Made by a program: the position numbers and the translations under genes | DNA from: Bacteroidota bacterium | GTDB lineage: Bacteria > Bacteroidota > Bacteroidia > Bacteroidales > UBA4417 | Reading direction: 5' to 3' | Assembly (NCBI GenBank): GCA_020048595.1 | Contig: JAIFMH010000086.1 | Location: forward strand, 17,277 to 81,276 | Length of the DNA: 64,000 nucleotides | Shown: positions 12,410 through 62,949 of the stretch, one piece after another | Position numbering within the stretch: position 1 is the stretch's first letter | Layout: each line of letters starts with the position of its first letter | The notes under the pieces: model-generated | Told to the model about the DNA's origin: nothing | The model's database searches: none | The model's input: the letters and a program-made list of their open reading frames with translations, nothing else

Positions 12410-13466
12410 CGATTTAATAACCTGAGTTCGATATAAGCAACCATTAAAATAAAGCGAGTTGTCCAAATTCTGGTTCAACATCATACTTTATTCTTGGTTT
12501 TTTAGGTAGAAACGAATAAGCGATAAGACCTGAAATCAAGTTGGAGAGAAAGTTTGAGAATGATCTGTGTCTTGAATGTTCTACTTGACAAATGTTTTTA
12601 AGCTCATCATTAATGGTTTCAATGATTGATCTTTTTCGAAGCAGTATTTTATCACTTATCGACATCAGACTATTCTTCATATTTCGTTTGAGGCCAGTAA
12701 TTAACTGAATACCATCAATAAACAGTTGTTCAAATAGCTTCTGGCCGATATATCCTTTATCAGCAAATAGTTTTCCAAAGATATTCTTGAGGAAATTACT
12801 ATCCTTCAATGGAGTTCTATCGTCGATGTGACCAGGAGTAATTACAAAATCAAGAATCTCTCCGGTATCACTAACAACAATATGAAGCTTAAAGCCGAAG
12901 AAGTATCCCATGGTTGATTTTCCTCGGGTAGCAATGCCTTCAAATACTTTGTGATTAAAGATTCGATTGTTTTTACATACCCGAATGGAGGTAGAATCAA
13001 TAAATGAAATACCAGAGCAAGAACCTAACCGCATTATTTTTAGAAAAATAACCATTGGAGGTAATGCTTTCTGCTGCAACTCAACAAACCGATTATATGA
13101 AACAGTCTTGGGGAATTCTGATTTAAGAACCTTCTGCACAAAATTGATATAGAAGTGCTTAAGATTCCTGTACCCACCAAGATGGAACGCGATCATGATG
13201 GTAATAACTTCAGAATCTGAAAGCTTACATGGTTTGTTTCTTTTCTTTTTAGTGGTTTCATCAGCCAATACATGTCCCTCCATTACTTGGTAATATTCTT
13301 TGCAAAATTCGTCAGTATAGAAGAATATTTCGGTAATTTTGTCTGTCATAGAAATAAGGTTTTAAAAGTGTATGTATTTAATAGTCAGATATTTAAATAT
13401 ACACAAAACCTTATTTCTTTCCAACTATTTTCTCCTTTTTTATTTCGAACTCAGGTTAATAAATCG
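12410..13466 (-). mobile_element. IS982-family insertion sequence (about 1057 bp), apparently intact
   Basis: Terminal inverted repeats match at 24 of 26 positions: left is CGATTTAATAACCTGAGTTCGATATA (12410-12435), and the reverse complement of the right end (13441-13466) is CGATTTATTAACCTGAGTTCGAAATA. They enclose one uninterrupted 301-aa transposase ORF. I could not see a target-site duplication. Confidence 0.8.
12444..13349 (-). CDS. IS982-family DDE transposase
   Basis: 301 aa. The N-terminus MTDKITEIFFYTDEFCKEY.., and later ..IDSTSIRVC.., ..GFKLHIVV.., ..LFADKGYIG.., are typical in size and motifs for IS982-type transposases. The ORF is bracketed by inverted repeats. Confidence 0.85.
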   Translation of the reverse strand: MTDKITEIFFYTDEFCKEYYQVMEGHVLADETTKKKRNKPCKLSDSEVITIMIAFHLGGYRNLKHFYINFVQKVLKSEFPKTVSYNRFVELQQKALPPMVIFLKIMRLGSCSGISFIDSTSIRVCKNNRIFNHKVFEGIATRGKSTMGYFFGFKLHIVVSDTGEILDFVITPGHIDDRTPLKDSNFLKNIFGKLFADKGYIGQKLFEQLFIDGIQLITGLKRNMKNSLMSISDKILLRKRSIIETINDELKNICQVEHSRHRSFSNFLSNLISGLIAYSFLPKKPRIKYDVEPEFGQLALF

Positions 13467-22142: not shown

Positions 22143-23480
22143 TTAAGGCCGGATAATAGTTCCGTCATTTTTTCGTACCTGAGTCCAGTTATTCAGTTGA
22201 ACATTGGGCAGCGGATATTTGGCAGCCAGTTTTTCATCCATATCAACACCCAATCCCGGCGCTTCGTTGACGTACATATACCCATTTTTTATAGTTGGCG
22301 TTCCCGGAAAAATTTCGCGCAGCTTTTCAGAAAAATTATGAGGTTCCTGAATTCCAAAATTCCAAACAGCCAGGTCGATATGTGCATTTGCAGCATGGCC
22401 AACCGGTGAAACATCTCCAGGTCCGTGCCAGGCGGTTCTGACATTAAAAGCCTCGCCAAAACGTGCAACTTTCATCGCCGGGGTTATGCCGCCAATCTGA
22501 GAAATATGTATGCGAATAAAATCAAACCACTGATCTTTCATCGGATCGACCCATTCATGAGGACTGTTAAATAACTCTCCCATAGCTATTGGCACAGAGG
22601 TATTCTCCCTCAATAATTTGAAATACCGGTTGTTTTCAGGTGAAAAAGGATCTTCAATAAAAAAAGGCCGATATTCTTCCAAAGATTTGATCAGATTAAT
22701 CGCTTCCATGGGTTGAAGTCGCTCATGTATATCATGCAATAGTTCAACCTTTTCACCACATTGTTTTCTTACTTTATCAAAAATCTCTCTGGTGCTTTTT
22801 GTATAGACATAAGGATCCATAAAACTATCGCGAGGCATACCGAATCCGGCATTCTTATAATCAGGATTATCTACCAGACCCGTAGTTCCATAACCTCCTA
22901 TCTGAATCCGAACGTGTCGGTACCCTTGTTCCATATAGCCTGCAACATCTTCAGCAACTTTTTCAGGTGAATTTCCACTCGCATGGGCATAGCAATCAAC
23001 TGCAAAACGGCATTTTCCTCCCAACAGCTGATAAACAGGCATGTTGGCCCGTTTTCCTTTGATGTCCCAAAGAGCCTGATCCAGGCCACTTAGCGCATTG
23101 TTTAAAACCGGACCGTTCCGCCAATACGAACTCTGATAGGTCGATTGCCAAAGGTCTTCGATAGTATCAACATCCTTCCCTACACAAAAGTCATTCAGAT
23201 ATTTGTCGATGGCGGCAACCACCACATGAGCCCTTTGCCTGAAGGTTGCACAGCCAATGCCATATAAACCAGGTTCACTGGTTTCAACTTTTACAATTAC
23301 CAACTCTATACCTTCAGGACAGGTTGAAATTGCTTTAACCTTTGTGATCTTTACCGGGGGAAGTCCTTTAAAAACTTTCTTATCATCTGCTGCAGCTGAA
23401 AAAGGATTCATCAATCCGGCTCCAATAGTAGCCAAACCAAGACTTTTCAGCGCTGTTCTGCGGTTTAGATTTGTATTCAT
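22143..23480 (-). CDS. Enolase-superfamily protein, D-mannonate dehydratase (ManD/RspA)-like, with Tat signal
   Basis: 445 aa. The N-terminus MNTNLNRRTALKSLGLATIGAGLMNPFSAAA has a twin-arginine motif, hydrophobic region and AxA site. The body resembles the ManD subgroup (..LWDIKGKRANMPVYQLLGG.., ..HDIHERL.., ..EDP..). Confidence 0.7.
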   Translation of the reverse strand: MNTNLNRRTALKSLGLATIGAGLMNPFSAAADDKKVFKGLPPVKITKVKAISTCPEGIELVIVKVETSEPGLYGIGCATFRQRAHVVVAAIDKYLNDFCVGKDVDTIEDLWQSTYQSSYWRNGPVLNNALSGLDQALWDIKGKRANMPVYQLLGGKCRFAVDCYAHASGNSPEKVAEDVAGYMEQGYRHVRIQIGGYGTTGLVDNPDYKNAGFGMPRDSFMDPYVYTKSTREIFDKVRKQCGEKVELLHDIHERLQPMEAINLIKSLEEYRPFFIEDPFSPENNRYFKLLRENTSVPIAMGELFNSPHEWVDPMKDQWFDFIRIHISQIGGITPAMKVARFGEAFNVRTAWHGPGDVSPVGHAANAHIDLAVWNFGIQEPHNFSEKLREIFPGTPTIKNGYMYVNEAPGLGVDMDEKLAAKYPLPNVQLNNWTQVRKNDGTIIRP

Positions 23481-23512
23481 AATTCTGAGAATTTTTAATT
23501 ATTAAATCTGAA

Positions 23513-24535
23513 TCAATTTAACACCCTTTTATAATTCTCCACGATCAAACCCGCATAAGGAGCAGCATATCCTTCCAATTTTTTCATATCAGCTTCTGAA
23601 AGTTTTTTCATGTTTCTCAGCACTTTTACATTTTCCTCCAATTCATGTGTAAACCTGCAGCCACTTACTAAAGATGAAACCGGAAGTGAATAAACATACT
23701 GATGAAGATTCGCGTATGTCAGTTCGGTAAGGCTAACAACATCCGGAATATCCTTAGTTTCGATATTTTTCGGTGTTGTATCTATCCTTCCTCCCATCAT
23801 GCTACCGCCAGCCATGGTCTTCATGGCCAGAATGCCATATTTTTTTTCGAGCAACACAGGAAGAACATGATGTTGGAAGGATTCAAACGACGGATCGCAA
23901 ACATTTAAGGGCATTTGGCAGGTATCCAGTTCAATGCCCAATTCATCGAGCTTTTTCAGAAAATGCAGATGAGTTTTAGGATTTTGGTGGCCGGTAAAAC
24001 CAATATAGCGTGCCTTACCTTTTTGTTTAGCTTCGAGAAAAGCTTCCAAAACACCTGCTTTTAACCTGTTATCAACATCTTCCGGAGTATTTAAGGCATG
24101 AATCTGCCACAAATCGATGTAATCTGTTTTTAATGCTTTTAACGATTCATCCAACATTTGTCGTACTTCCGCACCTGTTTTGCCTGGCGCCTTTGTCATC
24201 AGGAAAATCTGGTCACGGTATTTAGGTGTTAGAAATTTACCCATGTACTCTTCGGCACGACCATTGACATATTTTCGGGCATTGTCGAAAAACCGGACTC
24301 CCAACTCCATAGATCGTTCAACCATTCTCTCAGCATCAGCCGGATTATCGATGAACCCTAAATGGTAGCCACCAAGGCAAAAAGCAGTTACTTTCTGACC
24401 ATCCCGGGTCAACTGACGTTGAGGTAAAATTTCGCCCCACTTGTCGTTCACAGGAATTGCCGAAGCCCAGTCAGCAATCAAACTTAAGGCCGCAACAGTC
24501 CCAACTTTTTTGATGAATTTTCTTCTGTTTTCCAT
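23513..24535 (-). CDS. Aldo/keto reductase with Tat signal
   Basis: 340 aa. The N-terminus is MENRRKFIKKVGTVAALSLIADWASA (Tat-like). AKR motifs: ..GVRFFDNARKYVNGRAEEYMGKFL.., ..DYIDLWQIHA.., ..RYIGFTGH... Confidence 0.75.
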   Translation of the reverse strand: MENRRKFIKKVGTVAALSLIADWASAIPVNDKWGEILPQRQLTRDGQKVTAFCLGGYHLGFIDNPADAERMVERSMELGVRFFDNARKYVNGRAEEYMGKFLTPKYRDQIFLMTKAPGKTGAEVRQMLDESLKALKTDYIDLWQIHALNTPEDVDNRLKAGVLEAFLEAKQKGKARYIGFTGHQNPKTHLHFLKKLDELGIELDTCQMPLNVCDPSFESFQHHVLPVLLEKKYGILAMKTMAGGSMMGGRIDTTPKNIETKDIPDVVSLTELTYANLHQYVYSLPVSSLVSGCRFTHELEENVKVLRNMKKLSEADMKKLEGYAAPYAGLIVENYKRVLN

Positions 24536-26332: not shown

Positions 26333-27565
26333 TCAGTTAAATGTTTTGTTGTATAAATTCTCATCCTTGTCGAAACAGCCTGACATATATACAATTGCCT
26401 TTGTATTTTCGATGGTTACAGGGGAACCGGAAATATAGTTTCTCATGCGGCTGCCCCACACCGAAACGGTTAATTTTTTGTCTCCCTGAACCAGTATAAA
26501 ATCCTGCGATTGGTTTTCAGGAACAGTTGTCAGTGCGCCGTTTCCGCCTGAAAATGCTTCAACATTGCTTAGCGAAGTATGTCCCTGTCCTTCGATGATG
26601 ATGGGGTGAATATTTTCCACTTTCTCGCCGGTATTGGCTATGATTGAACCTTGCGCGATTTGCCAGTTGCGGTTTTTTGTATTACTCCCTCGTTTTAAAA
26701 TGCCAACTGCAACACAGTCGAAGTTAAAATTGGTTAATTGCCCGTAAGATTCGCTATCGAGTAAAATTCCACCATACGTTCCGAAGGTAAAAAGGTCGAT
26801 AATCTGGGCATTATCAGTATGGTTTATGGTGTAGGCATATGTTTTTTTAGCAATGACAGCATCCACAACTGCACGACTGTACTGACCTCCAATGTATCGC
26901 TGTCCGGCAGGGTTGACATGGCAATGCAAAATGCGGGGAACATCGTAGACATAATCCATCCGGATAAATTCACCGCTAAGCGGATAGCCATAGCAATGTT
27001 CGAAAGTCATTAATTCGCAGGCATTTTCGCGACTGGCATTAAAATCGAAAGCTAAATATTCGCCATAAAAAGTGAGGCAGGAAAGAAACACGCCCTGTGC
27101 CCTGCTGGTTTGTGAAACCTGAATGGTTGCCTTGTATGGGATAATTGCAGCCGGGTCTTTGATGGTTTGCTCAGGATACCAAAACTGAATGCCTTTAATT
27201 TGAGTCCCGGTTTCAACAGTTATAAAAGCATTTTCTCTATCCGTAATGGCGAACACACTGCCAACAGGTTGTTTTTTTGTCGCGTGGGTAGTTCCACGGG
27301 GAGTTGGACCGTGTACGCCGATCAGGGAAACATTTTTTTTCAGGATAATTCCGCCATTAATGGGATAGGGTTCTTCGGAGGGTTCAACAAATAATGCAGC
27401 GCCTCTTACTGTGGCCCAATCAATGGCTTTTTGCAGGTTTATTTTATTTAAAGCAGCGCTGTTCCCGGGCTTTACATCAAATTTTTGGATGCTTGTTAAT
27501 TCTGAAGCTCTTAACTGGTTTATGCCAATAACTAACATCAGCAATAGGATTAAGTTCGTTTTCAT
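26333..27565 (-). CDS. Exported right-handed beta-helix protein (Pectate_lyase_3-like); candidate glycanase or lyase
   Basis: 410 aa with a signal peptide. The N-terminal region, ..FDVKPGNSAALNKINLQKAIDWATVRGAALFVEPSEEPYPINGGIILKKNVSLIG.., resembles the start of pectate-lyase-superfamily/GH28/GH55-like beta-helix proteins. The assignment is by eye only. Confidence 0.45.
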   Translation of the reverse strand: MKTNLILLLMLVIGINQLRASELTSIQKFDVKPGNSAALNKINLQKAIDWATVRGAALFVEPSEEPYPINGGIILKKNVSLIGVHGPTPRGTTHATKKQPVGSVFAITDRENAFITVETGTQIKGIQFWYPEQTIKDPAAIIPYKATIQVSQTSRAQGVFLSCLTFYGEYLAFDFNASRENACELMTFEHCYGYPLSGEFIRMDYVYDVPRILHCHVNPAGQRYIGGQYSRAVVDAVIAKKTYAYTINHTDNAQIIDLFTFGTYGGILLDSESYGQLTNFNFDCVAVGILKRGSNTKNRNWQIAQGSIIANTGEKVENIHPIIIEGQGHTSLSNVEAFSGGNGALTTVPENQSQDFILVQGDKKLTVSVWGSRMRNYISGSPVTIENTKAIVYMSGCFDKDENLYNKTFN

Positions 27566-27601
27566 TGGTTTTATCTGTTTAATTTAAAATAATTTCTGGT
27601 A

Positions 27602-28690
27602 TTACGGTTTTAACAACTTCGTCAAATCAATACGGTCGTAAGGCTTTTTTCCGAAGGCTGCGTAATACTCCAGCTTTACAGTTCCTTTTTTACCATCGGT
27701 TTTAATTATTGCATATCCCGGCAGGTCGGTTTGTTTGAAGAAAGTTACCTGTTTTGCTTCTTCAGATATGATGGCTTTCCTGTCTTCAAGGGTTTCCGGT
27801 TGCCAATCCGGAACATTTTCTGCCAGGGATGGACCGTATTCTGTGATTACTTTTGTTGGTATTTGGTAATTCCTGTCTTTTATGACACTTACCACCATAA
27901 CCTGCACGATTGGCCCGTACTGGGTAGTGCGCCGAACAACCGAGTACTTGTGAAGATGACCGCATAAAACAATCGCTTTATGCCGGGCAATTACTTCCAA
28001 TAGTTTTTCATGTTGTTCCGGATTTTTTCTAAAGGTGTGCCAGCACCGTTCAGTAACCGGAATGACCGGTTCGTGGATCACCACAAATTTGAATTTTGCT
28101 TTTGATGCCGAAAGCTCTTTTTCAAGGAAAGCAGACATATTGGTATTTTTATCCCATGGATCAAGGCAGGTAATTTGCACATCGCCAACGACATAAGAAT
28201 AACTGGCATTTTTTATATCCGGATTATTGGTCTGTTTCCTGAACATGGGCACATAAAATTCCTGAAATGCTTCCACCGATCCGGGTCCGGTAACATCATG
28301 GTTTCCTTTGGCAATAATCCAGGGAGCAGGCACAATGGCCGCTTCAATTGACTTCATCGCATTCGAAGCCATCTGTTTCGCCATTTGCACCGAACCGGCC
28401 AATCCCTCCGATAAATCACCCAATTGAATTACAGCTTTTACCGGTGGATTTTCAGACACAGCTTTGTTTCTGATGATTGTCATAAAATCGCTCCAGTTTT
28501 TCTCTGTATATACGGTATATTCCTTTGTCACCTGCAGCAAATCGTCGGGTTTGGTTCCGAGCCAATTCATATCGTGGTCGTCCAGGAGGTCATAATGCAG
28601 GTCGCCAAGCACAATAAAACTACTTTTTTGTGCAAGTGCATAATACCCAAATAAGAAAGTAAACAATACCAGAATTGAAAATTGCTTCAT
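27602..28690 (-). CDS. Exported calcineurin-like metallophosphoesterase
   Basis: 362 aa with a signal peptide. Metallophosphoesterase motifs occur in order: VLGDLHYD, QLGDLSE, KGNHD, VIHEP, CGHLH. Confidence 0.75.
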   Translation of the reverse strand: MKQFSILVLFTFLFGYYALAQKSSFIVLGDLHYDLLDDHDMNWLGTKPDDLLQVTKEYTVYTEKNWSDFMTIIRNKAVSENPPVKAVIQLGDLSEGLAGSVQMAKQMASNAMKSIEAAIVPAPWIIAKGNHDVTGPGSVEAFQEFYVPMFRKQTNNPDIKNASYSYVVGDVQITCLDPWDKNTNMSAFLEKELSASKAKFKFVVIHEPVIPVTERCWHTFRKNPEQHEKLLEVIARHKAIVLCGHLHKYSVVRRTTQYGPIVQVMVVSVIKDRNYQIPTKVITEYGPSLAENVPDWQPETLEDRKAIISEEAKQVTFFKQTDLPGYAIIKTDGKKGTVKLEYYAAFGKKPYDRIDLTKLLKP

Positions 28691-28707
28691 TTTGAGTGAA
28701 TAGTTGT

Positions 28708-29799
28708 TTATCTTTCTAATTTGACTTGTTTCCCGGTTTTGCTGCTTTTGCGGGCAGCTTCGAGAATTTCGACAACGGTCAGGTTCGTTTCAAGCGCCGA
28801 TAAATCAGTTTTTGAAACAATAACATCTCCTTTTATTGCAGCCGAAAAAAAGGCAAAACCATCCTTAAAGGGGGATTTTGTCCATGGTATTTTCTCAACA
28901 CTTTCAACCGATTTTTCATTTAACCTGAACCGGATTGTTTGAGCATCGTCGCTGAGTACATATCCGGTATTGCCGTAGATGTGCATGTCTTTACGATTGA
29001 AGGGCCAATTCCATGAAGCATTGATGACTCCTTCCATGTTTGGATACGAAAGCACGATGGTCGCATCATCATCAACTTTTGGATAGACACCAGGTTTGTA
29101 TTGTTTAAGTCTGGCATAAACCGATAATGGTTTTTCACCCTTCATGATCCAGGTTATCAGATCAGCTCCATAACAACCAAAATCGGTTACAGCCCCACCT
29201 CCATTTAAAACAGGATCGGTGAGCCATTCTAAAAATTCGCTGTTTACTTTTATTTCTTTTGGCCCTTTGTGCCCATCGTAAACAATTACTTTTCTCAATT
29301 CACCCAATTCACCCTTATTAACCATCTCCTGACTTTTATAATTCGATGGATACCAGGTCGTTTCATAATTGGTAAGTGTAAGTATATGGTGCTTTTTTGC
29401 AAGTTTTGCCATGACATTGGCATGTTTGACGCTCACAGCCAAAGGTTTTTCAACCATAACGTGAATTCCGCGGGGAGCACATGCCTGCACAACTTTCAGG
29501 TGGTCGAAAATGGAAGTGAAAGTGATTACCCCGGCGGGTTTAGTTTTGTCCAGCATTTCATCCAAAGACTGATAAATCAGGTTTTGATCGATTCCAAACT
29601 GTCTGGAGTACCGGCCTGAAAGGACAGTATCACTTTCTGCAATTCCCACAATCTGAATATCATTTCTGCTCAAATTTCTTAGCAAGGGAAGCACATGCGA
29701 ATGCGATAATCCGGCAATTCCAATTCTGACTGGTTGTTGAGCTTCAGAGGCACTAAAAATTATGCTGAAACAGATAATTAAAAACCATGCAACTTTCAT
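28708..29799 (-). CDS. Exported Gfo/Idh/MocA-family NAD(P)-dependent oxidoreductase
   Basis: 363 aa with a Sec-type signal (MKVAWFLIICFSIIFSASEAQQ). A Rossmann N-terminus follows (VRIGIAGLSHSHV..IVGIAESD), then ..VMVEKPLA.. as is typical of the family. Confidence 0.75.
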   Translation of the reverse strand: MKVAWFLIICFSIIFSASEAQQPVRIGIAGLSHSHVLPLLRNLSRNDIQIVGIAESDTVLSGRYSRQFGIDQNLIYQSLDEMLDKTKPAGVITFTSIFDHLKVVQACAPRGIHVMVEKPLAVSVKHANVMAKLAKKHHILTLTNYETTWYPSNYKSQEMVNKGELGELRKVIVYDGHKGPKEIKVNSEFLEWLTDPVLNGGGAVTDFGCYGADLITWIMKGEKPLSVYARLKQYKPGVYPKVDDDATIVLSYPNMEGVINASWNWPFNRKDMHIYGNTGYVLSDDAQTIRFRLNEKSVESVEKIPWTKSPFKDGFAFFSAAIKGDVIVSKTDLSALETNLTVVEILEAARKSSKTGKQVKLER

Positions 29800-29862
29800 A
29801 CTGTAATAATTTGATTTTTAATGGTAGAATAGAACTCCATGCTGCAATTTAATATTATACTC

Positions 29863-30687
29863 TTAAGTATTGAGAAGCAACATGTTCGTTCCATGGTTAA
29901 AACACAACTGAATCCGGAAGCTCTTCCAACCCGAAATACTCATGTTCAATTTTGTCGCTAATTGCACATTTCCGTAGGTTGAAAGGCTGTTGTTGTGATA
30001 ATGACCCGAAAAGACAGCATTCACTTTATTGTCGTTAAATAAATCAAGGTATTTTTCGCGATATTCCAAATCAATGTTTGAGTAGGCTGTCGGTTCATCA
30101 ACGGTTTTAATAAAAAACGGATAATGGCAAAACAAGATAATATGCTGCGCTTTCAGGCTTTCTTTCAGTTTTTTTGTAAGCCAGTTGTATTGCTTTTGTT
30201 CGGGCTTTTCTAATTTGGCTTTGATTAAACCGGAGTTAAATCCAATAAACGATGAACCCTTGTGTTCGAATGAAAACCGATCACTTCCGTAGTTCTTTTT
30301 GTACTTTTTCAAGCTTTCCTTATCAGGAATTTGCCCGATGTCATGATTTCCAGGCGAATAATAAACCCGAATCGCCGGATTTATTTTTGCAGTATTTCGT
30401 TTAAATTCCTCAATCTGTGAAGGTGATTTTGGATCATTCACGAAATCACCTGTAATCACCACAAAATCAGGATTCAGACTATTTATTTTTGCTACCGCTT
30501 TTTCATATAAAATAGTTTCCTTTTCAAAACTCACATTACTGTCAAACATGCCAAACTGTGGGTCGGTAAGCTGTATAAAAAACCAGGGGGCTTTTGGATT
30601 TTCCTTTTGCGCTATCGAAGTACCTGCAATAATAAAAATCATTGCCAGGCTGATGATTGTTTTTCTTCTCAGTACTTGTAAAAACAT
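29863..30687 (-). CDS. Exported calcineurin-like metallophosphoesterase
   Basis: 274 aa with a signal peptide. Motifs: QLTDPQFG, ITGDFVND, PGNHD, FCHYP, SGHYH. Confidence 0.7.
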   Translation of the reverse strand: MFLQVLRRKTIISLAMIFIIAGTSIAQKENPKAPWFFIQLTDPQFGMFDSNVSFEKETILYEKAVAKINSLNPDFVVITGDFVNDPKSPSQIEEFKRNTAKINPAIRVYYSPGNHDIGQIPDKESLKKYKKNYGSDRFSFEHKGSSFIGFNSGLIKAKLEKPEQKQYNWLTKKLKESLKAQHIILFCHYPFFIKTVDEPTAYSNIDLEYREKYLDLFNDNKVNAVFSGHYHNNSLSTYGNVQLATKLNMSISGWKSFRIQLCFNHGTNMLLLNT

Positions 30688-34741: not shown

Positions 34742-36061
34742 TTAAAAGGTTTGTTGAGCATAGTTTCCCATTTCCTTTTCCCAATCCTTTAGCAGGGTTT
34801 TGAACTTTTTTATCATAACCGGATTTTCATCCTTTAAATTTGTTGTTTCACCAAGATCTTTAGCCAAATCAAAAAGATATTCCTTTTCTTTTATTTTCAG
34901 GTATTTCCAATTTTCCATGCGCACTACCCACTGATTCTGGAACCTCCAAAATAAGGGGCGCTTTTTCATTTCTTTTTCAGAAAAAAGAAGTTTCGAAAAA
35001 TCCTCTCCATCGAACCTGACCTTGTTAGAAATTCCGGCTACGTTAAGTAATGTAGGTAAAACATCCATACTTATAACTGGGTCATCAGCAATTTTACCGG
35101 GTTTAATTTTTCCGGGATACCAGGCAATTGCAGGAACCCTGTGTCCACCTTCCCAAAGTGAACTTTTAAATCCGTTAAGCGCACCGTTGTTTCCCATGCT
35201 TGTGGCTCCATTGTCGGAGCAAAAAAACACAAATGTATTTTTGTCCAGGTTCAATTCCTTCAATTTCTCAAGCACACGACCAATATTTTCGTCCATAATT
35301 TCTACCATTTCTTTGTAGGCCTGTTTTTTGTCGGAACGGGAACCAAGCATTTCGAAATTTAATCCAGGCAATCGATCCGCTTTGTCATTCCGCCCCTGAT
35401 AAGGAAAATGTGGAGCTTCATGGGGTAAATACAGTAAAAATGGTTTGTTTTTATTGGATTCAATAAACTTCAGTGCCTGGTTCGTAATTAAATCGGTTAC
35501 ATAACCTTCATCGTAGCACGTATCGGTATTGTGCCACCAATCATAAATGCCGATTCCATCTCGATGAGAGATATAATCCACATTGCCACTTACATAGCCA
35601 TAAAATTCATTGAATCCATGATGTGTCGGATTAAATTCAGGTTGGTAGCCCAAATGCCATTTTCCAAAAATACCAGTCTGATAACCTGATTTTTGGAAAA
35701 TTTCAGCCATTGTTACTTCAGAATCAGCAATACCATAGATCCTTTTATCCATTTGGGCATTAATTACCCCTTCCAATCCGACGCGCTGCTGGTAGTTACC
35801 AGTCAGTAATGAGGCCCTGGTTGGAGTGCAGACGGCTCCGTTGGAGTGGTAGTCGGTAAACTTTATTCCATCGGCTGCCATTTTATCCAAAACCGGTGTT
35901 TTAATGGATTTACTTCCATAACAGCCAATGTCTCCATACCCCATGTCATCGGCCATAATCAGAATAATATTTGGTTTTTCGGCAAGTTCTTTTGCTGCAG
36001 CGGCAGAAGTAAAACAACTCAAGGCAATTGAAACGGACAAAACATTAACCGGACTCTTCAT
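34742..36061 (-). CDS. Formylglycine-dependent sulfatase
   Basis: The ORF track gives 34742..36172, but that start overlaps the upstream gene by 56 nt. The ATG at 36061 (MKSPVNVLSVSIALSCFTSAAAA) gives a normal signal peptide. Motifs: PNIILIMADDMGYGD, GAVCTPTRASLLTGNY, CSDNGA. Confidence 0.88.
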   Translation of the reverse strand: MKSPVNVLSVSIALSCFTSAAAAKELAEKPNIILIMADDMGYGDIGCYGSKSIKTPVLDKMAADGIKFTDYHSNGAVCTPTRASLLTGNYQQRVGLEGVINAQMDKRIYGIADSEVTMAEIFQKSGYQTGIFGKWHLGYQPEFNPTHHGFNEFYGYVSGNVDYISHRDGIGIYDWWHNTDTCYDEGYVTDLITNQALKFIESNKNKPFLLYLPHEAPHFPYQGRNDKADRLPGLNFEMLGSRSDKKQAYKEMVEIMDENIGRVLEKLKELNLDKNTFVFFCSDNGATSMGNNGALNGFKSSLWEGGHRVPAIAWYPGKIKPGKIADDPVISMDVLPTLLNVAGISNKVRFDGEDFSKLLFSEKEMKKRPLFWRFQNQWVVRMENWKYLKIKEKEYLFDLAKDLGETTNLKDENPVMIKKFKTLLKDWEKEMGNYAQQTF

Positions 36062-36116
36062 TTCTTTTTTGTTTGTTAGTATTGGTTGTAAACTGCTTAC
36101 AAGCAAATAGAATATT

Positions 36117-37670
36117 CTAATTCTGCTTATTAGCTTTCTTTTCCCAATGAAACGAATCCCCTTCAACAACAAGCTTCAACTCATTTTTCGGAGTAACTTC
36201 GGGTGCAAATACCTTTGGGGCCGATTTTTGCATGTTCTGCATAATTGGACGGTATTTTTCATCCGCTGCCAAATTGTACCATTCGTTAGGATCTTCCTTC
36301 ACATTGTACAACTCTTCACCTCCATCGAAATAACGGATATACCGCCAATTTGTATTTATTACTGCATAGCTTCCTTTTTCATTACTCGGAAGAAAAACGT
36401 TTCTGTCCATCGATCTGTTTGGTTTTTTCAAGGAAGATACCAGGGATACGCCCTCAAGGTTTTTAACCTTCGGAAGATGGCAGAGTTCAATAAAAGTCGG
36501 GTACATATCGATCAGACTAACCGATGTATTTACTTTTTTATTTTTTGGAATCCCTTTCCCTGCCCAGATAAACGGAACATGCGATGTACGTTGCCAGAGC
36601 GTATGTTTGCCCCAGTGCATTTTTTCACCATGATGAAATCCCTGGTCACTCCAAAAAACAATGATTGTATTGTTTTTTTCAGGACTCGCATCCAGGGCAT
36701 CCAGAACGCGACCAAGCATAGCATCAGCGAATGAAACGGAAGCAAGGTATCCGTGGATTGCATCCTTTAAAACGCCCAATTCTTCCAGTTCCCTGTGTTG
36801 TTTCGACCGGTTCATCATATTTTTACGGATTTTTTCCGGAAGATCATCCAGGTCATCAGCCTTAAAAGGAGGAAGTTGGATTGAATCGCGGTTATACATG
36901 TCAAAATACTTTTGGGGAGCATAATTCGGATAGTGGGGTGAGTACAATCCCAGGGCAAGGAAGAACGGTTTGTCATGCTTTTGCTGAAGGATACTACAAG
37001 CCCAATTCGTACGTATGGCATCCACCATATCATCTTCCTTTTCATTGGCAATTGGCCCCCATTCAAGATGCAATGCCGAGCCACCTTCTCTGCCGGTTTT
37101 GGTGTAATAAGGACTATAGGGATATGGAACCGGAAGCGGGTTGTCATTCATGTGGTAAGGTCCTATTTCCCATCCTGAATTTTTGACTTCCTGACTTCGT
37201 GCAAAATATTTATCCCAGCCACGAAGATCAACGAACCCACCCCGGTGATGATAGATTTTACCGGAACCATACGTACTGTATCCTCCTTGTTTAAAGGCCA
37301 TTTGCATGGTTACCAGATCCGGATGATCGTATTGAAAAGGATCTTCTCCATAACAGCCTGTAGTTGATGCATTTAATCCGGTCATGATCGCAGTACGGGA
37401 TGGCGCGCAGAAAACGCCGGGCGACTGGGCAGATGTAAAAACTACCCCTAGTTTTGCCAAACGATCCATATTCGGCGTTTTGGCCTGATTGTAACCCAGG
37501 GGAGTTACCCAGTCGTTAAGGTCATCCATGGCCAAAAAGATCACATTGGGCTGGCTTCCTGATTGGTTGCTTTTTTCACCTGTGCCCTCATTTGCCTGTA
37601 AAATATTTCCTGTCTGTCCCACAATGAAAATCATGCCCGGGATCAAAAAAAATTGATGTATTTGTTTCAT
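36117..37670 (-). CDS. Formylglycine-dependent sulfatase (iduronate-2-sulfatase-like N-terminus)
   Basis: 517 aa. Motifs: PNVIFLAMDDLNDW, GVFCAPSRTAIMTGL, WSDQGFHHGE. Confidence 0.88.
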   Translation of the reverse strand: MKQIHQFFLIPGMIFIVGQTGNILQANEGTGEKSNQSGSQPNVIFLAMDDLNDWVTPLGYNQAKTPNMDRLAKLGVVFTSAQSPGVFCAPSRTAIMTGLNASTTGCYGEDPFQYDHPDLVTMQMAFKQGGYSTYGSGKIYHHRGGFVDLRGWDKYFARSQEVKNSGWEIGPYHMNDNPLPVPYPYSPYYTKTGREGGSALHLEWGPIANEKEDDMVDAIRTNWACSILQQKHDKPFFLALGLYSPHYPNYAPQKYFDMYNRDSIQLPPFKADDLDDLPEKIRKNMMNRSKQHRELEELGVLKDAIHGYLASVSFADAMLGRVLDALDASPEKNNTIIVFWSDQGFHHGEKMHWGKHTLWQRTSHVPFIWAGKGIPKNKKVNTSVSLIDMYPTFIELCHLPKVKNLEGVSLVSSLKKPNRSMDRNVFLPSNEKGSYAVINTNWRYIRYFDGGEELYNVKEDPNEWYNLAADEKYRPIMQNMQKSAPKVFAPEVTPKNELKLVVEGDSFHWEKKANKQN

Positions 37671-37688
37671 TTCATTAATATTATTTAC

Positions 37689-38735
37689 TCAATTTACAAT
37701 TTCAGCATTTTCAATAAACTCCTTATCAGGTTGAAAATTTATCTTTTCTGCCAGCTTGGTATTCAACCAGATTTTCGATTTCATATTCCTTGTCACAGGA
37801 ATATCAGAAGGATTTTCTCCCTTTAATATTTTTTTAGCGGTTGTGGCAGCCCAGATTCCCTGCTCCTCTGCAACCTTTGTAATTCCAAATACAGCATAGG
37901 ACATCATAAAATCTTCACATGTAACTACAGGAACAAGGATGTTTTTAGAAATAAAATTTTCGGCTTCAACATTATTCCAACCTTTTATAGCTCCATTAGT
38001 GGAAATATAGATTATATCATATGTTTTATTTCCTTCTTCAAAATGTGTTTTCCAGCTCTCAAAATCATCAACCAATTCATGTCTGACTGATAATCCTACG
38101 CGATTATAAAGTGAATCTAGAATTAACTTTTCCTTTCGCGATGTGGTGGTGTTCTCGGTAAGCACCAATAATTTTTTCATCGCCGGATAAAAAGATTTCA
38201 TCGTAATTAAAGTTTCGGCCAAAGGAAGTATTTCGAGCATACCCGTCAGCTTAACAGCCTTGAGGTCGTATTCCGTATCCGACCAGTTTACCCCACAAAA
38301 TACAACCGGAATATCGATTCCGGAGAAGTAGGGTTGAATGAGATATTTCACCGCATTATCGTCAGAAACAATTACTACATCAGGTTCAATAATCCTTATT
38401 GAGTCGAATAATTGAGCGGCTTTTTTTTCAACGTAATCTTGCGAAGGATTTCTTTTAGTATCCATTATATAGGTCACCAGCTGAAAGCTATCGGCTGGGA
38501 ATGCCTTCCAAATGGCATCCATGATTTGATCACTTGAGGGATGTCCTTTGTGGTATGAATTTATATAAATTACTTTCGGCTTCTCGGTTTTTTGCTGAAT
38601 GCAACCTTGAAATAGCAGGCTCAAAAGAACGATGAGTAATCCACTTTTAAAATGTGGCTTACGGGAATTGGTTATTTTTTTCATGGATAGTGCTTTTTTG
38701 ATTGCTGTTGTTTTGTTCCTCAATGAAAATAGCAT
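37689..38735 (-). CDS. Orphan periplasmic-binding-protein-fold lipoprotein (ABC_sub_bind / PF04392-like)
   Basis: 348 aa; an alternative start at 38684 gives MKKITN... Lipobox LLFQGC. Pattern: KVIYINSYHKGHPSSDQ.., ..DVVIVSDDNAV.., ..IPVVFCGVNWSD..LTGM... No ABC permease or ATPase gene occurs anywhere in the window. Confidence 0.5.
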   Translation of the reverse strand: MLFSLRNKTTAIKKALSMKKITNSRKPHFKSGLLIVLLSLLFQGCIQQKTEKPKVIYINSYHKGHPSSDQIMDAIWKAFPADSFQLVTYIMDTKRNPSQDYVEKKAAQLFDSIRIIEPDVVIVSDDNAVKYLIQPYFSGIDIPVVFCGVNWSDTEYDLKAVKLTGMLEILPLAETLITMKSFYPAMKKLLVLTENTTTSRKEKLILDSLYNRVGLSVRHELVDDFESWKTHFEEGNKTYDIIYISTNGAIKGWNNVEAENFISKNILVPVVTCEDFMMSYAVFGITKVAEEQGIWAATTAKKILKGENPSDIPVTRNMKSKIWLNTKLAEKINFQPDKEFIENAEIVN

Positions 38736-38739
38736 TGAT

Positions 38740-40878
38740 TTATTTTATAGCCTGTTCCTTTAAAACTGAGATTTTATGTATCAGGGAATCCAGCTGAAAT
38801 GTTCTGGTTAAAGGCTCTGCATTGGAGTACCATGTTGAAAAAATGCCGTGTTGTCCTTCGTACAAATATTTTTTTGCCTGGACTGCCTCATTATGAGCCA
38901 TCTCAAGATTTTTAATCAGAATATCCTTTTTTGCCTGATTTTTATATGCAAAAACAAAGTGGTACAGTGTTTTACTTAAATGGGACATATAGTAGCTGTA
39001 TATCCGAAGGTTGTCGTTAAAAAACGTTTGTTTATCCTTATCCAATTCAGACATCATTGCAGTACAACGTGCAGCTACAGATTCAAATTTGGGTAAAGTT
39101 TCTTCCATCCCATACAATAGGGCATCTACCTGGTTCTGACTTTTATTAAATTCATTATCAATGCGAAATGTGCGGCCTTGAACACTCTCATAACCAATCT
39201 TGTGCAACGGATTCTTATTTAACTCCTCTTTTGAAGAATAAAACACTTCATAGATATGATCGAATGCCCTCGCATACCTTAAATCCTGAAACAAGAACTG
39301 GCGTTCCATTCCCTCAAATTCGGATGCCTTGGGTTGCCAATATGAGTTGTAATAATCTTTGTATAGTTGTGCCACTTGCTTTGCATGTTTTGCACCAAAA
39401 TACTGAGTACAATAATCCAGTATAAATTCGTCGGTGCTATAGCTATTATAATCCCATAGCATTTTTGCATTGGCCGATAATTCCATCACAAATTCTCTGA
39501 CATTACCAGCATTAACTACGGAGAAATAGAGCGGTGATTTATTGTTGATGTACCGGTAATTGAACTCCATTTTCCAGGGACCTTCGGCCGGAGCAACATG
39601 AGCTCCGGTTGAGGCAAATCCAAAATTCATATAATAACCCAGCTTAACAGGTTTTTCCGAATTAAAACTGACCAGATCGTCAAACGGATAGGGATCACGA
39701 CGGGCGGCAACATAAGTCCAGATCATGTTTTCACTCTCTGGCGGCTTTAAATAACCAGCAGCCATTAATGAAGCAATTTCATCGTAAAAGGTAATACGTG
39801 TGTATGGATTAGGATTTCCCGTAACTTCTTTAATAATATCAAGTTGTGTCTGAAGCATTTTGTTTATTACCGCTGCCCTGTCTTTATCACTTTCAGGAGC
39901 ATCTTCAAAAACACTCCAGAAAGGCTGATCTACTTTTCCCCTGAACGCGATGGTCCAGAGGTTTTCAATCCCACTCTTTTTGACAGTTTCTGCATTGTAC
40001 CTGAAGAAATCTTTAATAGCAGACTCATTCGCAAGTAATAACTTTGGAGCTTCCATATTTCTGACATTTCCCCAATAGTCGTCCCAAGTTCCAAAGGAAG
40101 TATTAAGTCCTGATGTATGATGGGAAGTAATCACTAATCCATATTTGTCGATTAAATTGGCATAATTACTTACTTTATAACCCGGTTCAATGGTAGAATA
40201 AGTTTCAACAGTATTCAATTTAAGCCGTAGTGTTGTTTCAAGCCAAACATTCTCATTTTCCTTTGAAAGCTTTTTCCATGGATTGAAAAAATCCTGGTCG
40301 CCCGGTAAAATGCTCCGGTACCTCACCTGTGGCGATTTGAAGAAAATATCGAAATCATCGGCAATTAATATCTCATCTTTTTTAACAGGAATCCACGAAC
40401 TCCAATGGTGCAGGGGAGGTACATCAAGAATTTTTTCGGAGAAAGTGTAGATGGCATAAATTGTACCCCGGAGGTCATTTCCTTCAAGATAAATCCTATT
40501 ATTCTCCGAATCAGCATATATCCGGTGAGATTCAAAACCATCGAGCTTCCTGACTTTATCAAACGGTATGGCAAGATGCCCTGATGATCGGTTTACAATT
40601 ACAATTTCCGGCTTTGAAATGTCAGCATCCATCTTATTTACAACGGATGGCTTTGTTCCCATAACACTCACAAAGTCTTTCAGAAAGGCATTAAGCGCGA
40701 TCTTGAGAGGGCCATCTTCCTTATCAGAAAATACAATTGTCAGGTCATTTTTACTTAATTTTATAACTTTTCCCTTCATCGGATTCGCATTCAGTGAAAA
40801 AGCAATAAGCTGAATTAAAATTACCAGCAAGAGTGATTTAATTCCCGAAAAATTGTTAGAGTTCATCCTATTTTTCAT
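38740..40878 (-). CDS. GH115-like glycoside hydrolase candidate (alpha-glucuronidase family)
   Basis: 712 aa with a signal peptide. The block ..NRIYLEGNDLRGTIYAIYTFSEKILDVPPLHHWSSWIPVKKDEI.. resembles the conserved GH115 N-terminal signature (GxDxRGTxYGxYxLSExxGVSPWxWW) as I recall it. It is shorter and more divergent than characterised GH115 enzymes. Confidence 0.5.
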   Translation of the reverse strand: MKNRMNSNNFSGIKSLLLVILIQLIAFSLNANPMKGKVIKLSKNDLTIVFSDKEDGPLKIALNAFLKDFVSVMGTKPSVVNKMDADISKPEIVIVNRSSGHLAIPFDKVRKLDGFESHRIYADSENNRIYLEGNDLRGTIYAIYTFSEKILDVPPLHHWSSWIPVKKDEILIADDFDIFFKSPQVRYRSILPGDQDFFNPWKKLSKENENVWLETTLRLKLNTVETYSTIEPGYKVSNYANLIDKYGLVITSHHTSGLNTSFGTWDDYWGNVRNMEAPKLLLANESAIKDFFRYNAETVKKSGIENLWTIAFRGKVDQPFWSVFEDAPESDKDRAAVINKMLQTQLDIIKEVTGNPNPYTRITFYDEIASLMAAGYLKPPESENMIWTYVAARRDPYPFDDLVSFNSEKPVKLGYYMNFGFASTGAHVAPAEGPWKMEFNYRYINNKSPLYFSVVNAGNVREFVMELSANAKMLWDYNSYSTDEFILDYCTQYFGAKHAKQVAQLYKDYYNSYWQPKASEFEGMERQFLFQDLRYARAFDHIYEVFYSSKEELNKNPLHKIGYESVQGRTFRIDNEFNKSQNQVDALLYGMEETLPKFESVAARCTAMMSELDKDKQTFFNDNLRIYSYYMSHLSKTLYHFVFAYKNQAKKDILIKNLEMAHNEAVQAKKYLYEGQHGIFSTWYSNAEPLTRTFQLDSLIHKISVLKEQAIK

Positions 40879-44335: not shown

Positions 44336-45631
44336 TTATTTTCTTTCCGGCATCTTTTTCGAAAAAGGAATTTCGCCACGCAGCATTTTACCTGCCATGC
44401 CCGTTAACCACAAATAATGATCGGATGGAACCTCTTTTTCAATAGGAACAAAAACACTTTTTCCAACCGGAACGTTATGCGCACATTTCATGATGGCAGT
44501 ACCTTCATCAATTTCATCGAACATGGCAACATAGATCATTTCAGCTCCACTCTCAAGTGCGCCGGCAATTTGCTTCCAGTAAAATTCACCTTTGTTCCTT
44601 GGAATTTTGTCTGATTTGTCATCTTTCATGTTGTGCCAGGAGAAGCCGGGATAAACAGTTGGGGCATAGGATTTCCCATTTTCTTTGCACCATTTCACAT
44701 CATCAATAATATTCTCCTGACGGTAAGCTTCGTAATTTCCCTCGTTATAACGCCCGACCAACCAGGGATGAACAACGTCTGCCTGTTTGATGGCATCATG
44801 CAAACGTGGGTCGCCTTTTGTATCCGATCCAAGGGTTCTCCAGCGCGACGGGATTCCCAAATGAATGGAACAACCGCCATATATAGGATCGTTTTTGAAA
44901 AAATCCATGATATCAAATATTTCAGGGATGTGACCAGATTCCCTTGTTCCGGCGCTTATTCCCCAAAAAGCAACTAAAGGTTTATTATTATGAAAAAGGT
45001 AGGTTGTTTTCTTCCCCTGGTTTGTGAGTTTCAGGTCGTCAACCAGATGTTTCCAATCCGCTATCACCAGTTTGTATTTGCTGTCATCCATACTGCCAAT
45101 ATCGTACATCAAACAAATAGCAATTCCATATTTAGTAGCAGCTTTTATAGCCGAAGCCATGACTTTGTCGTTATGATTTAGTCTTTCCTTGCTTGTAAGA
45201 ACAGAGAAGAACCTTTGCATAAACACGCCATCAATCCCGTACTGTTTCATCCATTTAAAATGCAAATCAACGGTACTTTCATCGTAAGAGCTAAAAACAT
45301 AGGCAGGAGAACCATCCGCGAACTTAAACGGTGTTTTGTATTTCACCTTGTACTCATCCATTTCAGGCCAGTTATCGAATTTACAACTTCCGTCTTCGAA
45401 TTTGTTATTTAAAGCGTAGTGGGTCCAACCCCTTTGGGCGCCATCGCCCTCACAATTAAACCAGCCCTGATAACCAGCCATAACAAGCCCTTTATAACTC
45501 ATGTATTTACTTTTTGGAGCATGTTTAGTTTGGGCTGAAATATGAATACTGAATAAGAGCATAAATAGTCCTGTTAAAAACAGTTTGTCCTTCATGGTGT
45601 ATGTTTTGAGAATAAAAGTACCTGTGGGCAT
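44336..45631 (-). CDS. Exported TIM-barrel glycosidase candidate, GH99/GH71-clan-like (family uncertain)
   Basis: 431 aa; the likely true start is the ATG at 45595 (MKDKLFLTGLFMLLFS..). Motifs: VMAGYQGWF, HFKWMKQYGIDGVFMQRF, and the C-terminal VAMFDEIDEGTAI, reminiscent of the NEWHEGT block of GH99-type barrels. Confidence 0.4.
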   Translation of the reverse strand: MPTGTFILKTYTMKDKLFLTGLFMLLFSIHISAQTKHAPKSKYMSYKGLVMAGYQGWFNCEGDGAQRGWTHYALNNKFEDGSCKFDNWPEMDEYKVKYKTPFKFADGSPAYVFSSYDESTVDLHFKWMKQYGIDGVFMQRFFSVLTSKERLNHNDKVMASAIKAATKYGIAICLMYDIGSMDDSKYKLVIADWKHLVDDLKLTNQGKKTTYLFHNNKPLVAFWGISAGTRESGHIPEIFDIMDFFKNDPIYGGCSIHLGIPSRWRTLGSDTKGDPRLHDAIKQADVVHPWLVGRYNEGNYEAYRQENIIDDVKWCKENGKSYAPTVYPGFSWHNMKDDKSDKIPRNKGEFYWKQIAGALESGAEMIYVAMFDEIDEGTAIMKCAHNVPVGKSVFVPIEKEVPSDHYLWLTGMAGKMLRGEIPFSKKMPERK

Positions 45632-46787: not shown

Positions 46788-46893
46788 ATTATAGTTGGTT
46801 ATAAAAAATAATGCTGCCAGAGTGTAATCCTGATGTTTCGGAACGAAACTTCATTTCGATACGCTTGAAGAAGGATATGGCATTTAAGTTAAA

Positions 46894-48734: not shown

Positions 48735-48780
48735 TTTATTGGGTTTTGATTTATCGCAACAGTGATAATCATTTCGACTG

Positions 48781-62886: not shown

Positions 62887-62949
62887 TATTTAACAAAGGG
62901 ATAGCTTCAACAAATAAGTCTATTCATGAAATATGGCTTTTATCTTCAC

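Follow-up and report, generated by a model that had tools for sequence, protein, structure and literature searches.

The question raised by this locus is whether two exported enzymes encoded in it work together. The stretch analysed here, called the window, consists of 64,000 nucleotides of contig JAIFMH010000086.1 (positions 17,277 to 81,276, assembly GCA_020048595.1) from a member of the Bacteroidales, lineage UBA4417. On the minus strand it encodes a Gfo/Idh/MocA oxidoreductase of 363 residues, here called Gfo363 (28708-29799), and a xylose-isomerase-like TIM barrel, here called TIM (45681-46787). The distance between them is 15.9 kb or nine genes, and both open reading frames (ORFs) are confirmed by Pfam. 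The initial annotation of this DNA proposed that the two proteins form a periplasmic pair, in which Gfo363 oxidises a sugar and TIM cleaves a glycosidic bond or eliminates sulfate. That two exported enzymes from the "right" families share a locus need not make them a pair. Our own reading, held with about even confidence, is that Gfo363 and TIM are separate modules of one locus for a sulfated alpha-mannan or glucuronomannan-type substrate, and not a dedicated dehydrogenase/lyase pair. The domains, export signals, synteny, gene remnant, conservation and failure to belong to known families can be read from the data, whereas substrates and chemistry are inferred.

The system to compare with is an oxidation-elimination-hydration route recently described in gut Bacteroides and Alistipes for small glycosides (PMC8121099; bioRxiv 10.1101/2024.03.25.586180). 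In Bacteroides, BT2156 is a TIM-barrel gene, BT2157 encodes a DUF1080 protein and BT2158 a Gfo protein exported by twin-arginine translocation (Tat), and disaccharides are used via 3-keto intermediates (Liu et al. 2021, PMC8121099). AL3/BT3 oxidises the sugar at C3 with a tightly bound NAD (Nasseri et al., bioRxiv 10.1101/2024.03.25.586180). The TIM barrel AL1/BT1 is a 3-keto-beta-glycoside 1,2-lyase, and the DUF1080 protein AL2/BT2 is both a 3-keto-alpha-glycoside lyase and a glycal hydratase (bioRxiv 10.1101/2024.03.25.586180).

Co-occurrence of Gfo363 and TIM

We surveyed 80 genomic loci around relatives of Gfo363 (48-77% identity, several phyla) and probed them with every protein of the window. 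A TIM homologue lies within 10 kb of the Gfo gene in four of these loci and is adjacent to it in none. In OW818689.1, a complete genome of 7.2 Mb, the orthologue of Gfo363 (74% identity) is found at 5.13 Mb among unrelated genes, in a setting that is not a polysaccharide utilisation locus (PUL). The TIM orthologue (80% identity) is at 0.50 Mb, i.e. 4.6 Mb away, and stands there in the same block as in the window: sulfatase, TIM, GH99-like, GH115, ABC_sub_bind, two sulfatases and GH92. Gfo363 also belongs to a gene module of its own, described below. The proposed pairing is thus not borne out by the comparison of genomes.

That Gfo363 is a periplasmic glycoside 3-dehydrogenase and TIM its lyase, together cleaving glycosidic bonds or eliminating sulfate in sulfated oligosaccharides, seems to us quite improbable. 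Both proteins are exported and encoded in one locus, the two families lie within 10 kb of each other in the loci that we label L100, L101, L012, L018 and L041, and Gfo363 is the only Gfo protein in the window, an AL3-like one being absent. However, the families seldom co-localise, they are far apart in the complete genome, and Gfo363 differs from the BT2158/AL3 type in every feature tested (see below). In L041, where both types of Gfo protein are present, it is the AL3-like one that adjoins TIM. For the elimination of sulfate we found no supporting evidence: on chemical reasoning, a 3-keto group does not put a C6 sulfate in the beta-leaving position, and no chemistry connects the one to the loss of the other.

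Export signals

The export signals described by the initial annotation hold up for both proteins. The calls are based on motif, hydrophobicity and conservation, and were made without a dedicated predictor. In Gfo363 residues 1-20 (29740-29799, minus strand) form a predicted Sec-type signal peptide with the cut at SEA/QQ. The N-terminus, MKVAWFLIICFSIIFSASEA followed by QQPVRIGIAG, is a hydrophobic extension that leads directly into strand 1 of the Rossmann fold. Of the homologues, 188 have an N-terminal extension; a twin-arginine (RR) motif is seen in none of these and a strongly hydrophobic 10-mer in 183.

The predicted signal of TIM, MKRRDFTKIAGLGALAMQSFPAFA (46707-46778, minus strand), is of the twin-arginine type. 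It reads MKRRDFTK...AFA/S, with an RR-x-F-x-K motif and an AxA cleavage site, and so has the sequence features of a Tat substrate. Arg6 and Arg7 are invariant and Phe9 nearly so in 47 aligned homologues, and the RR motif with a weakly hydrophobic, Tat-like h-region is found in 110 of 117 homologues. The protein probably starts at Met4 (nucleotide 46778) and not at 46787, because the homologues begin with MKRRDF.

Neighbours of TIM in related loci

The survey around TIM gave 16 distinct loci, and a metagenome scan 12 loci, many of them short. In four loci around TIM (L095, L096, L098 and L102) the order is sulfatase, DUF1080 (PF06439), TIM, GH99-like, followed by a Gfo/Idh/MocA protein of 446-449 residues. 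This Gfo protein carries a Tat signal (MSSRRKFIKN...) and the PF19051 domain. In NCBIfam it matches BT_2158_fam best, with 139-160 bits, which is below the equivalog cutoff and far above all other models, and in the PDB its closest matches are 8tdf and 8tdh (E = 5e-24). The DUF1080 protein of these loci matches 8tda/8tde with E = 7e-34. A second, smaller, Sec-exported AP_endonuc_2 protein is often found near TIM; a PDB sequence search with the one from L098 gave nothing useful. NCBIfam has no family for TIM, for the DUF1080 protein or for this second TIM barrel.

L041 has the order AP_endonuc_2::DUF1080 fusion, AL3-like Gfo, TIM, sulfatase, Gfo363, MPE1 (a metallophosphoesterase, see below), therefore both types of Gfo protein and both types of TIM barrel coexist in one locus. 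The Gfo proteins beside TIM in the sister loci, which carry PF19051, have 446-452 residues. In total, an AL3-like Gfo is present in six of the 16 distinct TIM loci and DUF1080 in seven, to which the remnant in the window can be added. A periplasmic oxidation/beta-elimination route, the other part of the original proposal, thus finds support for TIM, through the DUF1080 protein and the Tat-exported AL3-like Gfo of the sister loci, but not for Gfo363 as the partner.

The GH99-like protein (44336-45631, minus strand) is the conserved downstream neighbour of TIM by Pfam and synteny. The sulfatase that directly precedes DUF1080 and TIM in the sister loci is by synteny the one at 51373-52965 (minus strand), which in the window is set apart from TIM by the MFS, phosphomannose-isomerase-like, GH88 and F5/8-type-C genes. 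Two fused ORFs were seen in relatives. One joins TIM to the N-terminus of a sulfatase (485 residues, P0200, on a JGI contig) and may be a gene-calling artefact. The other is the AP_endonuc_2::DUF1080 fusion of 538 residues (L041, 3850-5466), which ties a TIM barrel to DUF1080 functions.

Sulfatases are the most constant neighbours of TIM. This bears on another explanation, that TIM is independent of keto-glycoside chemistry and would serve in the periplasm as a metal-dependent isomerase, epimerase or eliminase that acts on reducing, possibly sulfated, mannose or uronate products and is coupled to the S1 sulfatases. We consider this somewhat unlikely. Sulfatases are found even around the distant TIM homologues (47-54% identity), where neither DUF1080 nor Gfo is nearby, and one database ORF fuses TIM with a sulfatase N-terminus. 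The first metal ligand of TIM is a Glu, as in epimerases, its top fold matches are 3-epimerases and isomerases, and the gene is under selection in the window, where DUF1080 and the AL3-like Gfo are absent. However, sulfatases are abundant across all these loci, which makes adjacency to them weak evidence, and in four to six loci DUF1080 and TIM are tightly adjacent with an AL3-like Gfo one gene away.

An eroded gene set in the window

In the window the DUF1080 gene is reduced to a remnant of 23 codons (46817-46885, minus strand), the 3' end of a PF06439 gene of the AL2/BT2157 type. It was found by tblastn with the DUF1080 proteins, and corresponds to their last 23 residues with 74-81% identity (E = 2e-6). 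The match is KCHILLQAYRNEVSFRNIRITLW against KGHILLQGHGNEVSFRNIRIT, where the conserved GHG has become AYR. The remnant sits in the 106 bp that separate TIM from the F5/8-type-C gene. The DNA homology to L084, L102 and L095 begins sharply at 46885 and continues via the spacer into TIM. From the remnant and this breakpoint it follows that DUF1080 has been deleted in this lineage.

The AL3-like Gfo gene is missing as well. In the window tblastn found no such gene, nor is one detectable in the 10 kb that follow, i.e. within about 74 kb of sequence, and the best match in the window (E = 0.007) is merely the Rossmann region of Gfo363. From the four upstream sulfatases to GH92 the gene orders of L102 and the window agree, except that L102 has DUF1080 before TIM and a Gfo protein of 449 residues after the ABC_sub_bind gene. 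The site that corresponds to the latter is the junction between the ABC_sub_bind-like gene and a sulfatase (37671-37688), which is 18 bp long in the window and contains no trace of this Gfo gene by tblastn.

One could ask if TIM is here a decaying leftover without function, given the loss of the neighbouring DUF1080 gene and the lack of an AL3-like Gfo. This is very improbable, since the ORF is intact and every residue that is invariant in the family is kept. The ratio of nonsynonymous to synonymous substitution rates (dN/dS) is 0.12-0.16 against other loci without adjacent partners, and on this sequence evidence TIM is under purifying selection in the window.

The TIM protein

According to Pfam, TIM is an AP_endonuc_2 protein (50.8 bits). 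The AlphaFold2 (AF2) model has a predicted local distance difference test (pLDDT) score of 86 overall and above 90 in the barrel. Foldseek places the model in the superfamily with a probability of 1.0, and the matches are generic, with 10-18% identity. They include a Planctomyces structural-genomics protein, Art22, IolI and sugar 3-epimerases; AtHYD is found at rank 24 (E = 4e-10) and DgpB-C at rank 44. There is no specific similarity, in sequence or fold, to the characterised lyases AL1/BT2156, AtOGE and CGE/DgpC. The family is small and isolated: among 1.84 billion representatives, 1018 match TIM at E <= 1e-3 and 72 at E <= 1e-30.

In the alignment to 3tva and Art22, Glu187, Asp215, Ser241 and Glu287 of TIM occupy the four canonical metal positions, and His189 is located two residues after Glu187. 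Ser241 aligns with the strand-7 His of both structures, and strand 8 carries His285-x-Glu287. In the wider TIM family the strand-7 position is a His in 25 of 48 sequences, and about half of the members have RR signals. The clade associated with these loci has Cys47, His49 and Ser241, whereas the wider family has Asp, Tyr/Phe and His at these positions. These residues suggest that the metal site of the clade has been remodelled.

As a metal-dependent barrel TIM would act on a keto-sugar intermediate of the oxidation-elimination-hydration route, with a divalent metal serving enolisation, elimination or hydration. Its place there would be that of an accessory, fourth component and not of an AL1-type lyase, because it coexists with a barrel in the AL1 position. 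In the window the partners of TIM may be encoded elsewhere, or TIM may have a partly independent role, because the gene is still under purifying selection in an eroded set.

The Gfo363 protein

Pfam assigns Gfo363 to GFO_IDH_MocA (53.9 bits), GFO_IDH_MocA_C3 (72.1 bits) and GFO_IDH_MocA_C (44.8 bits). The domains are PF01408, PF22725 and PF02894 only; PF19051 (GFO_IDH_MocA_C2) is not among them. The protein thereby differs from the BT2158/AL3 type, which has about 450-490 residues and contains PF19051. In NCBIfam its score with BT_2158_fam (NF058561) is 34.6 bits, far short of the cutoff of 750, and the alignment is confined to residues 26-173. BT2158 and AL3 are Tat substrates, whereas Gfo363 lacks a twin-arginine signal. 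Finally, Gfo363 has Asp206-x3-Tyr210 where AL3 has Asp-x3-His (Asp248/His252). Gfo363 is thus unlike BT2158/AL3 in all the features compared.

The AF2 model of Gfo363 has a pLDDT of 88. The best Foldseek matches are aldose-aldose oxidoreductase (AAOR, 5a02) and glucose-fructose oxidoreductase (GFOR), with template-modelling (TM) scores of 0.76-0.83, but the E-values span only 2e-24 to 1e-22. A profile search against the PDB gives DHDH, a dihydrodiol/xylose dehydrogenase, with 63.8 bits, AAOR with 56.5 and DgpA1 with 54.1, followed by the glucuronide 3-dehydrogenase P2B11 with 36.6 and by 8tdf and 8tdh with about 34. By sequence and fold Gfo363 appears closest, by small margins, to the group of dihydrodiol/xylose dehydrogenase, AAOR and GFOR. 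Two other assignments were tried and rejected. An NAD-dependent glycosidase like GH109 or GH188 was set aside for want of specific similarity, as 8qc2 reaches 22.6 bits and the matches contain no GH109 structure. For an AL4/BT2159-like reductase, BT_2159_fam scores only 22.3 bits.

In the motif GGGAVTDFGCY of Gfo363 the Tyr aligns with a Tyr of DHDH (2o48) and AAOR (5a02), and with a His of DgpA1. In a set of 77 orthologues, 88 positions show at least 95% conservation, among them His33, His35, Glu55, His100, the EKP motif, Asp206 and Tyr210. Glu117-Lys118-Pro119, Asp206, Tyr210 and Glu55 are invariant, so that the EKP Lys and the Asp-x3-Tyr motif of the GFOR/AAOR/DHDH group are present. Glu55 is located at the end of strand 2, which we take to be a feature of NAD-type rather than NADP-type binding. 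Such conservation suggests a single shared activity, with a binding signature of the NAD type. A further invariant feature is the pair His33-x-His35 in the glycine-rich loop. Relatives with at least 48% identity are found in several phyla, mostly as a stand-alone gene. We infer that Gfo363 oxidises or reduces a free sugar or the reducing end released by mannosidases, and would not act on a glycoside at C3.

Gene neighbourhood of Gfo363

Upstream of Gfo363 lies MPE2 (29863-30687, minus strand), an exported calcineurin-like metallophosphoesterase (Pfam Metallophos), which adjoins the Gfo gene in nine of the 80 loci, all from close relatives. The conserved downstream neighbour, by Pfam and synteny, is a second exported metallophosphoesterase, MPE1 (27602-28690, minus strand); a PDB sequence search with it gave nothing useful. 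It is followed by unk410 (26333-27565, minus strand), an exported protein of 410 residues that synteny assigns to the same module. unk410 has no match in Pfam, NCBIfam or the PDB, and it is 81-88% identical in ten Gfo loci. In close, Prolixibacteraceae-like relatives the conserved module is MPE2, Gfo363, MPE1, unk410 and GH92. The role of the phosphoesterases of this module (26333-30687) inside a sulfated-mannan locus is unexplained.

For the distant orthologues of Gfo363, no recurrent partner was seen among the 80 immediate neighbours by Pfam, and de novo clustering of the neighbours agrees. The neighbours are heterogeneous and thus offer no hint at function, and no AP_endonuc_2 protein is among the 25 families listed, out of 97 matched.

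The same gene array also contains a ManD-like dehydratase and an aldo-keto reductase (22143-24535, minus strand), both with Tat signals judged by their N-terminal motifs. The dehydratase, of the enolase superfamily (22143-23480, minus strand), has the twin-arginine signal MNTNLNRRTALKSLGLATIGAG..., and the reductase (23513-24535, minus strand) has MENRRKFIKKVGTVAAL... Both signals are kept in L068, where a Gfo363 paralogue (50% identity) stands directly before the two genes. A periplasmic sugar-acid dehydratase is unusual, as is an exported NADP-type reductase.

These genes raise the possibility that Gfo363 is a periplasmic aldose 1-dehydrogenase, whose aldonate product (mannonate or a sulfated form of it) would be processed by the dehydratase and the reductase. 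We regard this as unlikely. The nearest relatives of Gfo363, DHDH, AAOR and GFOR, with their catalytic Tyr, agree with such an activity, the two Tat-exported enzymes are encoded four to five genes downstream, and in L068 the Gfo paralogue is directly followed by their homologues. However, besides the window itself this linkage is found in only one of the 80 fetched loci (L068), and the margins over DgpA1 are small. Glucuronate catabolism explains the ManD-like protein and the reductase equally well, and the recycling of the cofactor in the periplasm is unexplained.

The locus in the window

Between about 1.4 and 61 kb every gene is on the minus strand, and together they make up a single, very large PUL. 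It contains two SusC/SusD pairs and an MFS transporter, and 13 S1 sulfatase genes lie between 13551 and 58335. The glycoside hydrolases (GH) are GH92, GH38, GH99-like, GH115-like and GH88, and there is a phosphomannose-isomerase-like cupin in addition to the ManD-like enolase-superfamily dehydratase and the aldo-keto reductase. Contigs that share the identical leftmost gene show that the locus runs on beyond the left end of the window, in the order sulfatase, GH92 and four further sulfatases (L104, 7633-17496). With at least five sulfatases past the left end, the locus has at least 18. The locus is Prolixibacteraceae-like, with close homologues in genomes of Prolixibacteraceae, Draconibacterium and Bacteroidales. 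Judged by its genes, the substrate would be a sulfated alpha-mannan or a glucuronomannan.

Some other features of the locus were noted. An insertion sequence (IS)-type DDE transposase gene (DDE_Tnp_1_3, 12444-13349, minus strand) is located between the SusC/D block and the sulfatase array. A lipoprotein similar to ABC_sub_bind (PF04392) adjoins the GH115-like gene (37689-40878, minus strand), and the pair is kept in L002, L083 and L102; a solute-binding-protein fold is unusual within a SusC/D-type locus. The listed ORFs of GH88 (47772-48914) and of one sulfatase (34742-36172), both on the minus strand, have TTG starts and long N-terminal extensions that overlap the upstream genes. Their real starts are probably at internal ATGs, e.g. 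MKKSDLKLSF... in GH88. Directly past the first gene of the locus there is a gene for a TraG/TraD-type coupling protein (62197-63897), therefore the locus borders a conjugative element.

Comparison with known systems

The sister loci of TIM share with AL1-AL4/BT2156-BT2159 a Tat-exported Gfo protein of about 450 residues (AL3-like), a DUF1080 protein (AL2-like) and xylose-isomerase-like barrels, all of them exported. However, these genes are part of a sulfatase-rich, mannan-type locus and not of a small disaccharide operon. TIM comes in addition to a second, Sec-exported TIM barrel, and in the window all that is left of the dehydrogenase and DUF1080 genes is the remnant of the latter. AL1 itself has a Sec signal and the site H-x-H/D/H/E, whereas TIM has a Tat signal and E-x-H/D/S/E.

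In Agrobacterium tumefaciens the beta-eliminase AtOGE and the hydratase AtHYD form a 3-keto-glucoside route (PMC10628242; PDB 8ro4). Both are metalloenzymes with a TIM barrel whose substrates are 3-keto-glycosides and 2-hydroxy-3-keto-glycal, and AtHYD is among the fold matches of TIM. Their identity to TIM is only 11-12%, no nearer than that of sugar 3-epimerases, and the metal site of AtOGE (His132, Asp163, His189, Glu233, with the catalytic His134) is only partly matched.

The resemblance to DgpA with DgpB/C, suggested by the initial annotation, turns out to be generic. That system also combines a Gfo-fold oxidase with a TIM-barrel Mn lyase. However, DgpA1 matches Gfo363 with 45-54 bits, no better than the aldose oxidoreductases do, and has a His in place of the Tyr. 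DgpB-C comes far down the fold matches of TIM, as given above, and no DgpB-like second subunit is present.

GFOR of Zymomonas and AAOR of Caulobacter (5a02) are, like Gfo363, exported Gfo-fold sugar oxidoreductases with the Lys/Asp/Tyr set. AAOR is Tat-exported with a tightly bound NADP, and the same is known for GFOR (PMC8121099). Gfo363 in contrast combines a predicted Sec-type signal with the Glu that we take as NAD-type.

The PUL for sulfated alpha-1,3-mannan in Polaribacter is reported to work by a purely hydrolytic cascade of four enzymes, and the main text of that paper mentions no oxidoreductase or xylose-isomerase-like protein (PMC13063451). It shares with the window the many S1 sulfatases and GH92, and it has a GH99-related endo-mannanase (GH195), to which the GH99-like protein of the window may correspond.

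Discussion

Several points weigh against the reading of Gfo363 and TIM as separate modules, with TIM in a keto-sugar route and Gfo363 acting on free sugars. For Gfo363, the regiochemistry is not readable from the sequence, and the C3-ketoreductase KijD10 likewise uses a Tyr. With a Sec signal, it is unexplained how an NAD-type Rossmann enzyme would be loaded with its cofactor; the characterised exported relatives pass through Tat together with theirs. A literature search on Sec-exported NAD enzymes gave nothing useful. In L100 and L101 the genes Gfo363, MPE1, (unk410), GH92, (GH88) and TIM form a co-directional array, and an AL3-like Gfo is absent within 10 kb; a functional link between Gfo363 and TIM in some genomes, this one included, is conceivable. 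As for TIM, it lacks the lyase site of AL1, AtOGE and CGE, i.e. His-x-His on strand 5, Asp on strand 6, His on strand 7 and Glu on strand 8, to which it is only a partial match. The distant homologues of TIM with sulfatases nearby have neither DUF1080 nor Gfo, and its keto-glycoside link may be lineage-specific. Finally, the TIM-barrel gene BT2156 has no phenotype in B. thetaiotaomicron (PMC8121099).

A bolder scheme joins the two proteins again. In this scheme the Tat-exported TIM would be a new class of enzyme that takes oxidation-elimination to sulfated mannans, Gfo363 would supply the keto-sugar where an AL3-like dehydrogenase is absent, and with the Tat-exported ManD-like and aldo-keto reductase proteins they would form a non-hydrolytic extracytoplasmic system. 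The new class could, for example, isomerise a 3-keto to a 4-keto sugar, enabling the beta-elimination of a C6 sulfate, or cleave 3-keto-6-sulfomannosides that are refractory to GH92 and sulfatases. We think that this has little chance of being correct.

If, as we prefer, Gfo363 and TIM are separate modules, each has its own interest. Gfo363 represents a strongly conserved, cross-phylum Rossmann family that is apparently Sec-exported, and it raises the question of how nicotinamide cofactors are supplied outside the cytoplasm. The families of the AL/BT route, together with an extra, uncharacterised Tat-exported TIM barrel, are located in sulfatase-rich mannan-type loci of sediment and aquatic Bacteroidota. 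Their presence in such loci suggests that the route also serves the breakdown of complex sulfated polysaccharides, with TIM, the 449-residue Gfo protein of L102 and the DUF1080 protein as the candidate enzymes.

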